Notes: a model not told the origin generated them from the sequence alone. Shown: positions 14,297 to 18,497, counted from the first letter of the stretch. The stretch: DNA of 64,000 nt from an uncultured Actinomycetes bacterium (GCA_963767005.1 CAVYCN010000003.1:64001-128000); one strand, 5' to 3'. Program-made: numbers and translations.

Positions 14297-15232
14297 ATGC
14301 AGCACCACTTCCAGGGCAGAGACTTCCTGAAGCTCGCCGACTTCACCCCCGACGAGGTGCGCTTCATCGTCGACACGGCGATCGAGCTCAAGCGCAAGCG
14401 CCTGATCGGCGAGCTCTTCGAGCCGCTGCGCGGCAAGACCGTCGCCCTGATCTTCGAGAAGGCATCGACGCGCACCCGCCTGAGCTTTCAGGCGGGCATC
14501 GCCCAGCTCGGCGGCCAGACCTTCTACATGAGCCCCGACCAGATGCAGACCAGCCGCGGCGAGCCGATCTCAGACACGGCGCGCATCATCGACCGCTACT
14601 GCGAGGGCCTCTTCATCCGCACCTTCGGCCAGGAGGTCGTCGAGGAGTTCGCCCGCTACATGCTCAACCCGGTGATCAACGCGCTGACCAACGAGACCCA
14701 CCCCTGCCAAGGCCTCTGCGACCTGATGACGATCAAAGAGAAGAAGGGCCACTACAAGGGCCTCAAGGTCGCCTACCTGGGCGACATCTGGAACGTCTGC
14801 CACTCGCTCATGATGGGCTCCGCCATGCTCGGCATGGACTTCTACGCCGCCCAGCCCAACGAGAGCTATCAGCCCAACGCCGAGCAGCTCGCGATCGCCC
14901 AGAAGTGGGCCGCCCTCTCGGGGTCGAAGATCGTCTATACGCCCGACCTCGAAGAGGTCGCCGGCCAGGCCGACGTGATCTACGGCAACACCTGGCACTC
15001 GATGGCCACCGAGAACCGCGAGCAGCGCCTCAAGGACTTCGCCCCCTACCAGGTCAACATGCGCGTGATCGAGATGGCCAAGCCTGACGTGATCTACATG
15101 CACTGCCTGCCGGGCTACCGCGGCGAGGACATGGTCGACGAGGTCATCGAGAGCCCCTACTGCGCCTTCTGGGACCAGGGTGAGAACCGCATGCACACCG
15201 AGAAGGCCGTCGCCGCGCTCTTTCTCGGCTGA
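14297..15232 (+). CDS. Ornithine carbamoyltransferase-family transcarbamylase (atypical substrate loop)
   Basis: FEKASTRTR, HPCQ, HCLP, QGENRMH; the usual DxxxSMG loop reads GNTWHSMA. Confidence 0.9.
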   Translation: MQHHFQGRDFLKLADFTPDEVRFIVDTAIELKRKRLIGELFEPLRGKTVALIFEKASTRTRLSFQAGIAQLGGQTFYMSPDQMQTSRGEPISDTARIIDRYCEGLFIRTFGQEVVEEFARYMLNPVINALTNETHPCQGLCDLMTIKEKKGHYKGLKVAYLGDIWNVCHSLMMGSAMLGMDFYAAQPNESYQPNAEQLAIAQKWAALSGSKIVYTPDLEEVAGQADVIYGNTWHSMATENREQRLKDFAPYQVNMRVIEMAKPDVIYMHCLPGYRGEDMVDEVIESPYCAFWDQGENRMHTEKAVAALFLG

Positions 15233-15328
15233 AGGAGCACGGCCCTTCGAATGATTCAGGGTCACCGCAGGGTCAACACGACGTCAATCACTGAAGCGCG
15301 GTCTGCTGCAAAGACGAGGAGGACAACA

Positions 15329-16252
15329 TTGGACACTCTCACAGAGTCTGCTGCATCAACACCCGTCAGCGAGCGATTCCCGGACGGATGGGGAGCATTC
15401 AGCAAGATCGGCTTGCTGCGGGACGTACTTCTCGGGGATCCAAGCTACTTCAGCTGGCACCCGACGAGCGCGATCTCACGGGCAACCCTGACCAACCTCG
15501 CAACCCGAGGCGTGGTCTACGACTCCGAGCTTGCCAAGCGACAGCACGAAGCCATGGTTCAGGTCTACCGGGAAGCCGGCGTGCGAGTTCACTTTGCCCG
15601 AGGCGACAAGGATGCTCCCTACTCGGTCTTCACCCGTGACTCAAGCGTGATGACCCCCTGGGGCCCTGTGATCATGAGCCTGCAGCCTGCGGTGCGTCGT
15701 CGCGACCACAGCACCGCGGTCGACTTCTACCACGCCGCTGGCATCCCGATCTGGAAGTGGATCACGGCTGGGCACATGGAGGGCGGCGACGTCGTCATCA
15801 TCGAGCCAGGTGTCGTGATGATCGGCTACTGCGAAGAGCGTTCACAGCAGTCTGGCGCAGAGCAGTTGGCTGGCTGGTTCAGAGAAGAGGGCTGGGAAGC
15901 TCTTGTGGTGGCCAACCCCGCCCACTTCGTTCACATGGACGCGCTCGTTCTGCCGGCCGCTCCCAAGACCGTCGTTCTCTGTCGCGATGCCCTTGAGGAC
16001 TACGTCACGGACTTCTTGAAAGCCCATGGCTATGACTTCATCGATGTGCCCTACAAGGACTGCGTTCGACTGGGTTGCAACGTCATGCCTTTGGGAAACG
16101 AGCGGATTCTCTCGCTCGAAAGCAACGACACCCTGAACAAGAAGCTGGGCGCTCTGGGTCTGAGTGTGTCTGCGGTCGACATGTCGATGTACGCCCTGGG
16201 TGGCGGCGGCGTGCATTGCCTCTCGATGGAGATCCGCCGAGAGGCAGAGTGA
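15329..16252 (+). CDS. Guanidino-group hydrolase, arginine deiminase/amidinotransferase/DDAH superfamily
   Basis: SVFTRDS, HMEGGD, HMD, GCN, GGGGVHCLS (catalytic Cys/His/Asp pentein motifs); TTG start after GAGGAGG. Confidence 0.88.
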   Translation: MDTLTESAASTPVSERFPDGWGAFSKIGLLRDVLLGDPSYFSWHPTSAISRATLTNLATRGVVYDSELAKRQHEAMVQVYREAGVRVHFARGDKDAPYSVFTRDSSVMTPWGPVIMSLQPAVRRRDHSTAVDFYHAAGIPIWKWITAGHMEGGDVVIIEPGVVMIGYCEERSQQSGAEQLAGWFREEGWEALVVANPAHFVHMDALVLPAAPKTVVLCRDALEDYVTDFLKAHGYDFIDVPYKDCVRLGCNVMPLGNERILSLESNDTLNKKLGALGLSVSAVDMSMYALGGGGVHCLSMEIRREAE

Positions 16253-16346
16253 GACCGGCTGACGATCTGCCTCTCAGATTCGGTACTGCGCCAACCGTTC
16301 GCCAGCAACTGTCGGAAAGCCAAAGTGGAAAGGGGGGAATCGAACC

Positions 16347-17765
16347 GTGAGCACCTCAGCATCCACCGTCCGGAAGACCCTGCCCGAGCGGCCGGGCGTC
16401 TTTGTGGCCTACGAGCGCGCCATGAAGGGGCCCAAGGTCGACGAGAAGGACTGGGACTATCACGTCATTCCCGAGACCGCTAAGCGCCTCAAGGAAAAGT
16501 ACGGGATCGCGATGGACAAACACGTCATGATCCCGACCGACCCCGACCTCATGAAGCGCCTCTATCAGGCCGGCCTTGAGATGCTGGTCGAGTGCGGCAT
16601 CTACTGCATCGACACGGGCCGCGTCATCAAGTGGAGCGAAGAGGAAGTGCTCTGGGGCGTCGCCCACGCTCCCAGGGCGGCAGTCATCGGCGAGGGCCTG
16701 CACGGCCGGCCGCTCGTGCCACGCCACGCAAACGACCCGCGACCGCCGCTCGTGCAGGGCGGTCCCACCGGCGCGCCCTGCAGCGAGAAGCACTTCTTCG
16801 GCATCCACTACTCCTACGCCAAGGAGGGCATCGTCGACTGCATTGTCGACGGCGTGCTGGAGACGATCGACGGCTACAACCCCGCGCCGGACAGCCCCTG
16901 GGAGGTGATGGCCGGCAAGCAGGAGGTGCTCTACGTGCGCCAGGCTCAGGCTCGAGCCAACCGCTCGGGCATGGGGTTATAGGGCCCCGAGACGCCGCTC
17001 GCCCCAGCCTCCGTCATTGCGGCGGACTTCCCCGGTGGCATGCGGGCGTCGGACAACCACGAGGTGTCGCAGCTCAATGAGCTGAAGTGCGACGCAGGGG
17101 CGTTGACCTTCACGGCTCATTACAACCAAGCGGCAGACATCATCATGGTTGAGCAGATGCCGATCTATGGCGGCTTCGCCGGTGGCCTCGAGGAGAGCAC
17201 CATCGTCGACTGCGCCACCCATCTGAACTCGTTCGTCATGTACGGCGGCACCTGGCACTTGGACGGCCCGGTCCACATGCGCTGGGGCATCACGACGACA
17301 AGAGAGGCTCTGGCCATCGCGGGCCACGCCAACCGCGCCATCGAGGAGGCCCATCCCCACTTGCTGACCGGCAACCAGTACTACACCCTGGCCGGCCCCT
17401 GCACCGTGATGTGTCTTCTGGAGACCGCCGCGCAAGCGATCACCGATACCGGCAGCGGCCGCGAGATCATGTCCGGAGTGGCAGCCGCCAAGGGCGTCAT
17501 TATCAACAAGACGACCGGCATGGAGGCACGCTTCATGGGCGAGTGCGCCCACGCCGTGGCCGGCCTGCCGATCGAGCAGGTCAACGAGATCCTCGACGCC
17601 CTGGTCGCCCGCTACGAGGGCAACTACAAGGCGGCCCCCGAAGGCAAGCCCTACGAGGACTGCTACGACACCGTCAAGGTGGTGCCCACCGACGAGTACC
17701 TCGGCGTCTACGACGCAGCCGTCACGGAGCTCGAGGGTCTCGGCGTCCACTACAAGCTCTGGTGA
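16347..17765 (+). CDS. mtmB: Monomethylamine:corrinoid methyltransferase with in-frame UAG (pyrrolysine, residue 212)
   Basis: ORFs 16347-16982 and 17040-17765 are in the same frame, joined by one TAG at 16980-16982 in the context RSGMGL-TAG-GPETPLA...DNHEVSQLNELK, matching the MtmB Pyl site (RPGMGV-O-GPETSLS...DSHEVSQLNELK); read-through gives 472 aa. Confidence 0.93.
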
Positions 17766-17846
17766 CGAGGGCAGGTGAGTCGACCATGGATGGCCTTGGG
17801 GCTCTACCTGTCGGACCCTGGGAGCCGTGAGGAGGACGAGCGAGCG

Positions 17847-18497
17847 ATGGCAGACGAAGAGCTGATCAGAGAGGCGCGGCAGTCGCTTCTCGAGCACGAC
17901 AAAGAGAGGGCGACTGATGTCGCCAAGCGCGGGCTGGCAGCCGGCATCAGCCCCGAGAGGCTGATGAACGAGGGCTTTATTGCCGGGATCCGCGAGCTCG
18001 GCGAGCGCTTCGACGAGGGCGAGGTCTTCCTGCCCGAACTGATGCTCGCGGCCGAGGCGATGGAGGCCGCCATGGCGGTCTGCAACGCCGCCCTGCCCGA
18101 GGGCCAGAGCGAATCACGGGGCACCGTGGTGATCGGCACGGTCAAGGGCGACGTCCACGACATCGGCAAGGCGATCGTGGTCTCCTACCTGCGCGCCAGT
18201 GGCTACGCGGTCTTCGACCTCGGTCGCGATGTCGAGGCCGAGACGTTCGTCGAGCAGGCGATTGCCCGTAAGGCCGACATCGTCGGTTCAAGCGCGTTGC
18301 TCACCGCCACTTTGCGCCAGCAGCGTGACATCGAGGAGGCTCTGCGTGAGGCCGGGGTGCGCTACAAGGTGAGGACCGTCGTCGGCGGCGCAGTGTGTAC
18401 GCAGGGCTGGGCGAGCGAGATCGGCGCCGATGCGTACGCTAGAGATGCGCTCGACGGCGTGAACAAGATCGAAGCGCTCATCGGGGCTCGCGTCTGA
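17847..18497 (+). CDS. mtmC: Methylamine corrinoid protein (MtmC-like)
   Basis: FLPELMLAAEAM, GTVKGDVHDIGK, DLGRDV, SSALLT, IGADAY; directly follows mtmB. Confidence 0.88.
   Translation: MADEELIREARQSLLEHDKERATDVAKRGLAAGISPERLMNEGFIAGIRELGERFDEGEVFLPELMLAAEAMEAAMAVCNAALPEGQSESRGTVVIGTVKGDVHDIGKAIVVSYLRASGYAVFDLGRDVEAETFVEQAIARKADIVGSSALLTATLRQQRDIEEALREAGVRYKVRTVVGGAVCTQGWASEIGADAYARDALDGVNKIEALIGARV

Follow-up and report, generated by a model that had tools for sequence, protein, structure and literature searches.

Among the described systems closest to the one that we examine here are the arginine deiminase (ADI) pathway, built from ArcA, the catabolic ornithine transcarbamylase ArcB, the carbamate kinase ArcC and the antiporter ArcD, and the agmatine deiminase pathway, in which AguA, putrescine transcarbamylase (PTC) and carbamate kinase give a precedent for the same scheme on another guanidino compound. 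Catabolic transcarbamylases that are established are few; PMC6022934 names those of ornithine, putrescine and ureidoglycine, and a 2015 review of the family (PMC4581275) holds that a catabolic transcarbamylase for beta-alanine is still to be proven. Methylguanidine, guanidinoacetate and guanidinobutyrate have known routes of degradation to urea, according to PMC12623156. We study a 64,000-nucleotide stretch of DNA from an uncultured Actinomycetes bacterium of soil (GCA_963767005.1, CAVYCN010000003.1:64001-128000; the stretch is called the window below, its contig C3 and the genome G000) and in it four co-directional plus-strand genes at 14297-18497, which encode a transcarbamylase, a pentein hydrolase and the methylamine proteins MtmB and MtmC (Table 1). 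A first-pass annotation of this DNA had read the four genes as one pathway for methylated guanidino compounds. The reading that we favor, at roughly even odds (a probability of about 0.5), is that the hydrolase and transcarbamylase, with a nearby carbamate kinase, carry out an ADI-style fermentation of a guanidino acid without an alpha-amino group, and that the adjacent pyrrolysine (Pyl) MtmBC would be an independent module for free methylamine.

The four gene calls of the first-pass annotation were borne out in place and direction, as were a carbamate kinase (above the TIGR00746 cut-off), an APC permease and a UroD/MtaA-like methyltransferase that it had listed nearby. The transcarbamylase belongs to the OTCace family (TIGR00658, 354.7 bits, above cut-off), and its structural model (predicted local distance difference test, pLDDT, 91.3) has the fold of ornithine transcarbamylase (OTC), with a template-modelling (TM) score of 0.95 to 1a1s; we predict it to be a catabolic enzyme for an omega-ureido acid. 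The hydrolase is a member of the pentein superfamily, with the five-fold alpha/beta propeller and the Cys-His-Glu triad, and is a predicted deiminase. Its open frame, 15251-16252, matches PF02274/PF19420 and falls under all NCBIfam cut-offs for ADI, dimethylarginine dimethylaminohydrolase (DDAH) and dihydrolase (43-75 bits against equivalog cut-offs of 300-490). Because a database protein 98.7% identical to it (P0002) has 307 aa, the true start is probably the TTG at 15329, which has AGGAGG upstream; for MtmC, the probable start is the ATG at 17847 rather than 17775.

We now consider the residues that would define the substrate of the hydrolase. As the first-pass annotation had cautioned, its FTRD and HMD motifs are ADI-like: the window protein has the ADI-type Arg103-Asp104 and Asp204 together with carboxylate Args at 123-124 and 171, and Tyr98 occupies the position of ADI Asn160. 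In ADI (M. arginini numbering), the Asn155 equivalent and two backbone carbonyls hold the amino end of the substrate while Arg180 and Arg232 hold its carboxylate, as described in PMC3474736. When 280 homologs (160 genomic loci plus 120 database matches, two overlapping sets) are aligned to the P. aeruginosa ADI, Arg165, Asp166 and an Arg in the Arg185 region are kept in all 280, and Glu224, Arg243, His278, Asp280 and Cys406 in 279. Where ADI has Asn160, the homologs have Arg (134), Ser (93), Cys (29), Tyr (17), Ala (4) or His (3), and in no case Asn or Asp. Compared with ArcA, then, the residues for the guanidinium (Asp166/Asp280) and the carboxylate (Arg185/Arg243) are present, but Asn160 is gone, the protein lacks the helical insert and is about 100 aa shorter (307 against about 410 aa), identity is about 17%, and the score lies far under the ArcA cut-off (63.5 against 489 bits). 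DDAH (from P. aeruginosa, and human DDAH-1) shares the compact pentein fold (TM 0.71-0.75 over the query), the Cys-His-Glu/Asp triad and two carboxylate Args; however, alignment with 3rhy gives TRD, HMD and Tyr where DDAH has VED, HLK and Asp60, identity is 19-20%, and the score is under all three DDAH cut-offs. We take the Glu-Asp (VED) and His-x-Lys (HLK) of DDAH to form the pocket for the methylated nitrogen. The fold of the hydrolase does not single out a substrate, because DDAH, ArgZ, AGAT and ADI match its AlphaFold model (pLDDT 84.6) about equally well (TM 0.71-0.78, the best being DDAH chains); ESM Atlas returns generic OTC and DDAH/ADI labels only.

Much of the OTC signature is retained in the transcarbamylase, namely the STRT, HPxQ and HCLP motifs and the Lys of FxKxSxRT (K55 in the window protein), and the DxxxSMG loop is replaced by NTWHSMA. 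According to PMC4581275 and PMC3282769, DxxxSMG is the diagnostic signature of OTC, and the Lys pairs with the carboxylate. Across 120 homologs, Lys53 and Asn167 are each kept in 119 and HCLP in 117, and Asp231 occurs in none (Asn in 118); ordinary OTC controls carry Asp231 in 28/28 and 3/3 genome matches and in 136 of 150 representatives. Asp231 of OTC is, we assume, the residue that specifically binds the alpha-amino group. In the FastTree phylogeny, the window protein groups with the Asp-less sequences around it in a single clade (16 tips, support 1.0) to which a protein of Enterococcus mundtii also belongs; a few other Asp-less representatives fall outside it. This NTWHSM clade is present in Thermoleophilia, Anaerolineae and Bacillota under the database label 'ornithine carbamoyltransferase', and no Asp-less transcarbamylase was found in 330 other Actinomycetota genomes or in viral contigs. 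PTC retains its Asp227 but not the Lys, and carries a (Y/W)(G/W)(V/L/I) loop and a C-terminal helix extension, whereas the protein here loses the Asp, keeps the Lys and the Ser-Met loop, and ends at 311 aa with no extension (TIGR04384 256.6 bits against a cut-off of 500). DPTCase and DBTCase are likewise OTC-branch enzymes with the loop Asp replaced and shorter-chain substrates, but they are biosynthetic and, according to PMC4581275, are defined by an HDLP motif plus a (T/S)RWQ loop, where this clade has HCLP and NTWHSM. Judged from sequence, the two enzymes are ADI-pathway-like yet depart from OTC, PTC, ArcA and DDAH at the residues predicted to define the substrate.

Other members of the OTC branch also occur in G000: a canonical argF (DTFTSMG) and a PTC-like enzyme beside an agmatine deiminase. 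The seven OTC-branch genes comprise that one canonical argF, three Asp-less genes (one of them frameshifted) and PTC-like genes with unusual WWW loops, at least two of which adjoin agmatine deiminases.

The neighborhoods of these genes reveal which parts of the cluster travel together. The first-pass annotation had looked to a conserved order of pentein, transcarbamylase and mtmB, and we find it in 0/160 hydrolase-relative loci, 0/18 Pyl-mtmB loci and 0/20 family transcarbamylase loci. The 160 hydrolase relatives, which are 46-60% identical and come mostly from marine Pseudomonadota, are the top 80 from each of two scans; they have flanks of at least 2 kb on both sides in 104 cases and at least 5 kb in 69. 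OTC, carbamate kinase and MtmB are found beside none of them, MttB beside 7 and a corrinoid protein beside 1. The Pyl-mtmB loci come from 18 genomes of the same class, in regions of 2-19.5 kb (four on contigs of at most 8 kb), and contain no pentein, OTC or carbamate kinase. A transcarbamylase 80-95% identical to ours is present in 20/79 family genomes, next to a short pentein in 18, PucR in 16, an iron-containing alcohol dehydrogenase in 6, carbamate kinase in 5 and a corrinoid methyltransferase in none. That short pentein is a paralog 30% identical to the window hydrolase, and G000 has two copies of it, one at C18:88844-89694, beside other transcarbamylase copies. Transcarbamylase and Pyl-MtmB co-occur in 4/79 genomes against 2.8 expected (Fisher p 0.46, the genomes being kin and not independent). 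No close ortholog of the window hydrolase was found in 88 other family genomes; protein collections hold four relatives of about 70% identity (P0003-P0006), two of which seemingly share contigs with 85% identical transcarbamylases (P0004 with P0137 and P0005 with P0134, on contigs with lengths of 4,487 and 89,657; the evidence is indirect). A more distant case is plasmid pLDW-8 of E. mundtii, with the order PucR, Asp-less transcarbamylase, YfcC antiporter, pentein; its pentein is 47% identical to the G000 paralog, and methyltransferase and kinase are absent within 25 kb. From these counts we conclude that pentein plus transcarbamylase is the conserved unit and that an association with mtmBC is known so far from one lineage only.

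The same survey brought two further observations on penteins. Hydrolase relatives of 39-48% identity occur in 31/44 genomes of another Thermoleophilia family (L297-L324, L194), and the short flanking sequences available for them contain no transcarbamylase. A third pentein group, 40-42% identical to the G000 paralog, stands with AOTCase-like transcarbamylases and a PuuE-like deacetylase (L197:7655-10517, L199:8436-10268, L202:12223-15361) and possibly belongs to another undescribed guanidino/ureido pathway.

Which substrate would such a pair of enzymes use? Since both keep the anion site and lose the alpha-amino site, an omega-guanidino acid and its ureido product would fit. The hydrolase relatives have an M20 carbamoylase within 6 kb in 42/160 loci (39 of them directly downstream on the same strand), and the one representative tested scores 484 bits to the N-carbamoyl-beta-alanine amidohydrolase 8c46, behind two chains labelled only deacylase/amidase. 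A 3-guanidinopropionase-like ureohydrolase (at least 55% identical to a representative whose best PDB match is 3nip) is within 6 kb in 21/160; after dereplication at 90%, the two neighbors are found in 24/95 and 11/95 clusters, respectively. Betaine-type ATP-binding cassette (ABC) genes are present in 31-35 of the 160, and one annotated plasmid has the order LysR, pentein, carbamoylase, betaine ABC, two ureohydrolases. Close relatives of 3-guanidinopropionase GpuA and beta-ureidopropionase thus flank the hydrolase relatives, which suggests the same substrate class; those enzymes, however, hydrolyse to urea or to CO2 and NH3 and conserve no energy, whereas the transcarbamylase here would retain the carbamoyl group as carbamoyl phosphate. 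From the plasmid and locus neighborhoods, the partner of the deiminase appears to be a hydrolytic carbamoylase in aerobes and, in anaerobes, a transcarbamylase able to conserve the energy.

In the pathway that we favor, the permease would import an omega-guanidino acid, for which 3-guanidinopropionate is the best single guess, with guanidinobutyrate, guanidinoacetate and taurocyamine as alternatives. Deimination by the pentein, with a Cys-thiouronium intermediate, would release ammonia and leave the ureido acid, for instance N-carbamoyl-beta-alanine. In the predicted direction of flux, the Asp-less transcarbamylase would phosphorolyse this to an omega-amino acid and carbamoyl phosphate, and carbamate kinase would then make ATP. 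This scheme resembles the ADI pathway in its deiminase-type pentein site, OTC fold with Lys53, carbamate kinase, transporter and predicted ATP logic, and differs from it in the missing Asp231 of DxxxSMG as well as in the hydrolase features given above. The agmatine deiminase pathway exists in G000 as a separate copy, which is the donor of the window kinase.

Several observations pull the other way. The mtmB gene begins 94 bp after the hydrolase in the same direction, and since only about 3.5% of G000 lies within 1 kb of corrinoid-methyltransferase or corrinoid genes (9.5% within 5 kb), chance adjacency is not the default explanation. P0002 (hydrolase) and P0243 (an MtmB fragment) are seemingly on one 27,530-bp contig of a second assembly, so a near-identical strain apparently shares the hydrolase-mtmB arrangement and the adjacency is apparently real in this lineage. 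Carbamate kinase adjoins the transcarbamylase in only 5/20 genomes, and the window transcarbamylase sequence may have been homogenised with a paralog. Neither M20 nor a guanidinopropionase-like neighbor is found in 111/160 hydrolase loci, including most of the closest relatives (56-60%), so the substrate may vary between subgroups. Finally, two backbone carbonyls also hold the alpha-amino group in ADI (PMC3474736), so that arginine may still be bound after the loss of one side chain, and canonical ArcA was not found in G000.

How, then, do the alternatives compare? The pathway of the first-pass annotation stands in its core, in that a deiminase-type pentein, catabolic transcarbamylase and carbamate kinase module is conserved and MtmBC is genuine; its link to mtmBC and the substrates that it named are poorly supported. 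Methylarginine and citrulline have an alpha-amino group for which both enzymes have lost the binder (0/280 and 0/120), and methylagmatine and methylguanidine have no carboxylate, yet the carboxylate binders are kept in both enzymes. For this last reason a route from methylguanidine through methylurea to methylamine was rejected as well. A route from creatine through N-carbamoylsarcosine and sarcosine reductase to methylamine was ranked low, as creatine lacks the N-epsilon hydrogen that Asp166 should bind; a GrdB-family search gave no match in G000, nor in any control genome. A modified form of the link would have the hydrolase free methylamine for MtmBC from an N-omega-methylated, alpha-amino-free guanidino acid, with the transcarbamylase phosphorolysing the same ureido acid, and this we consider unlikely but worth keeping in view. 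It draws on the position of mtmBC directly after the hydrolase, apparently in a second strain too, on the occurrence of hydrolase relatives near betaine-type ABC genes (as counted above), dimethylglycine dehydrogenase-like genes (8) and MttB (7), and on the two penteins of G000, 30% alike, that stand beside practically one transcarbamylase. Because practically the same transcarbamylase accompanies both, the two penteins may differ in leaving group and not in product. Counting against it are the mtmB tally of zero in the 160 hydrolase loci and the pentein tally of zero in the 18 mtmB loci, the lack of a close hydrolase ortholog in the family genomes surveyed, a site that keeps the ADI-type Arg165/Asp280 and not the DDAH Glu65/Lys164 pair, and a difference in codon use (third-position GC of 0.74 in the hydrolase and 0.89 in mtmB). 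In addition, among the best 120 MtmB matches none is apparently on the contigs of P0003-P0006, a weak and indirect test. The fuller claim, that this lineage joins a new methylamine-releasing guanidino-acid hydrolase, the long-postulated catabolic transcarbamylase of beta-alanine type and Pyl MtmBC such that ATP (through carbamoyl phosphate) and a methyl group for corrinoid C1 metabolism would both come from one N-methylguanidino acid, we hold to be doubtful, slightly more so than that modified route. It is less likely still that the hydrolase is a compact, non-canonical ADI or DDAH that makes citrulline (and ammonia or methylamine) and that, its Asp-to-Asn change notwithstanding, the transcarbamylase works as a catabolic OTC. 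The transcarbamylase does score above the OTC hidden Markov model cut-offs with OTCs as its closest folds (TM 0.95), the genome has no detected canonical ArcA, DDAH chains give the hydrolase its best fold matches, and an APC permease adjoins. But both alpha-amino binders are gone across the clades, with no compensating HDLP of the kind that DPTCase and DBTCase have (PMC4581275); the hydrolase reaches only 43-75 bits where DDAH and ADI cut-offs are 300-490, and its relatives neighbor beta-ureidopropionase-like enzymes and not citrulline enzymes.

The setting of the cluster raises the question of whether there is a single pathway here, or whether the host genes for transcarbamylase and carbamate kinase were recently copied into, or polished over, an island whose catabolic genes are unrelated. 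Another possibility is that the module serves carbamoyl-phosphate supply or has a biosynthetic role, as with an amidinotransferase. The cluster sits on a tRNA-Cys island in a lower-GC stretch of C3 built of tandem islands, with tRNA-Cys 3'-end copies at C3:10838, 47881 and 85180 (window 21180) and the intact gene at window 61958-62031. Inside the lower-GC islands, five window segments are gene-bounded copies, 99.6-100% identical to other G000 loci. The transcarbamylase DNA (14280-15223) is 100% identical to C18:85689-84746 and 99% like the frameshifted copy at C3:4156-5096, and the carbamate kinase was copied from the C4 agmatine deiminase locus along with the tail of the gene upstream there. 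Recent duplication or capture, gene conversion and a polishing artefact would each account for such near-identity. Contigs of four public runs were aligned to window 3000-19500, most of which is covered by related strains at 90-100% identity. In one of them (X1), 14 of 295 nt differ in the piece that bridges the transcarbamylase and the spacer, against no differences in the other X1 pieces, a pattern that hints at a homogenised transcarbamylase allele. Against a mosaic, a contig from an independent peat run (X2), 97.8% identical (16 differences in 732), connects the end of the transcarbamylase to the hydrolase, so this junction is not peculiar to the assembly; the seeming co-location of the 70% relatives P0004 and P0005 with 85% transcarbamylases is indirect evidence in the same direction, and the PucR, antiporter and amidase neighbors indicate catabolism. 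The hydrolase-mtmB junction is spanned by none of the public-run pieces among the matches listed. On balance, we rate a mosaic or biosynthetic origin as the least probable of the explanations considered. The tandem tRNA-Cys islands (including window 56189-57610) also contain three att-like repeats, tyrosine integrases and small terminase/methylase modules.

The methylamine genes can be read on their own terms. Like the Methanosarcina barkeri MtmB1/MtmC pair, MtmB (530 bits to 1tv2) has its TAG at the Pyl position, an adjoining corrinoid protein and Pyl machinery in the genome, and its full-length Thermoleophilia orthologs (66-76% identity) have one TAG apiece; unlike that pair, it resides in a bacterial host with no detected acetyl-CoA synthase. 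G000 encodes tRNA-Pyl, PylS and two PylB above cut-off (C4:551839, C3:245318), while for PylC and PylD the evidence is limited to tblastx matches to the clusters of relatives. As a pyrrolysine methylamine system MtmBC is genuine, and within its family it is ordinary. G000 further has a RACo-type activator, FTHFS and a MeTr-like methyltransferase slightly under its cut-off. Acetyl-CoA synthase was not found in G000 by a search that was positive in 2 control genomes, and a Wood-Ljungdahl methyl sink was rejected on that account; tetrahydrofolate is the probable acceptor of the methyl group, given the MeTr-like gene and FTHFS. Elsewhere, mtmBC is mostly away from pylS in family f1 and often beside it in family f4. 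G000 has about 29-35 MttB-family, 4 MtmB-family and 16 corrinoid loci as well as tRNA-Sec. Close to an aminoethylphosphonate-transaminase-like gene, window 40504-42590 encodes a Pyl-free MtmB-family protein together with a corrinoid protein of its own and a DeoR regulator.

Table 1. Features of the window around the transcarbamylase-hydrolase-mtmBC cluster
Feature	Position	Strand	Remarks
Corrinoid protein	3697..4344	+	
UroD/MtaA-CmuA family methyltransferase	4355..5515	+	
Carbamate kinase	5562..6653	-	5668-6837 a 99.8% copy of the C4 agmatine deiminase locus gene; C-terminal tail differs
Remnant, 3' end of PTC-like gene	6654..6837	-	that gene precedes carbamate kinase at G000 C4
Pyl-free MttB-family methyltransferase	6864..8366	-	
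Corrinoid protein	8381..9022	-	
Helix-turn-helix-cupin transcription regulator	9179..9796	-	
Iron-containing alcohol dehydrogenase	9803..10969	-	43-46% relative in 6/20 conserved transcarbamylase clusters
Metallophosphoesterase-like protein	11102..12061	-	accompanies APC permeases in G000
APC-family permease	12146..13777	-	divergent from transcarbamylase; APC + metallophosphoesterase pair also in relatives' conserved cluster
OTC-fold transcarbamylase, Asp231-less clade	14297..15232	+	loop NTWHSMA replaces DxxxSMG; Lys53, Asn167, STRT, HPCQ, HCLP kept
Pentein hydrolase, 307 aa (predicted deiminase)	15329..16252 (open frame from 15251)	+	triad Cys297/His202/Glu151
MtmB, pyrrolysine monomethylamine:corrinoid methyltransferase	16347..17765	+	PF05369 E 7e-200
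In-frame TAG, residue 212	16980..16982	+	sole in-frame TAG; aligns with Pyl position of M. barkeri MtmB/MtmB1
MtmC, cognate corrinoid protein	17847..18497 (open frame from 17775)	+	TIGR02370 above cut-off
tRNA-Cys 3'-end copy, att-like	21180..21237	-	bounds island holding the cluster
Copied segment	5668-6837		carbamate kinase
Copied segment	14280-15223		transcarbamylase
Copied segment	32911-34736		metallophosphoesterase + neighbor
Copied segment	35261-36657		glutamate dehydrogenase
Copied segment	37007-37998		GAPDH

Among the flanking genes, the APC permease and the metallophosphoesterase-like protein are paired six times in G000, often with a nucleotidyltransferase-like gene (window 27593-28408); such pairs are at window 11102-13777 and 30574-34000 and at C3:5172-7806, C3:257254-260812 and C2:292500-301500, and the pairing possibly reflects a modify/unmodify control of transport. 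At the island edge, window 19297-20960 carries a GmrSD-N (DUF262) and RiboL-PSP-HEPN pair, a probable anti-phage system. The window has no Rfam RNAs, riboswitches included, besides two tRNAs, and a scan for promoters and terminators gave signals at chance level.

In the open-access literature, the scope of our search, we found no description of the NTWHSM clade, of a guanidino-acid deiminase pathway or of a methylamine link; subscription journals lay outside this scope, and work published there after 2018 could already cover the clade. The locus points to a well-supported NTWHSM clade paired with short penteins that, to judge from their residues, have lost the matching alpha-amino binder. Under the reading that we favor, the hydrolase and transcarbamylase are likely mis-annotated as arginine metabolism, and many annotations of an 'arginine deiminase/DDAH + argF' pair would be wrong. 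A cultured carrier, E. mundtii DSM 4838, makes the idea testable. Should the methylamine link, the weaker half, also be true, pyrrolysine enzymes would have a new source of methylamine, and should the fermentation itself be true, anaerobes would gain a further substrate-level ATP pathway for guanidino acids.

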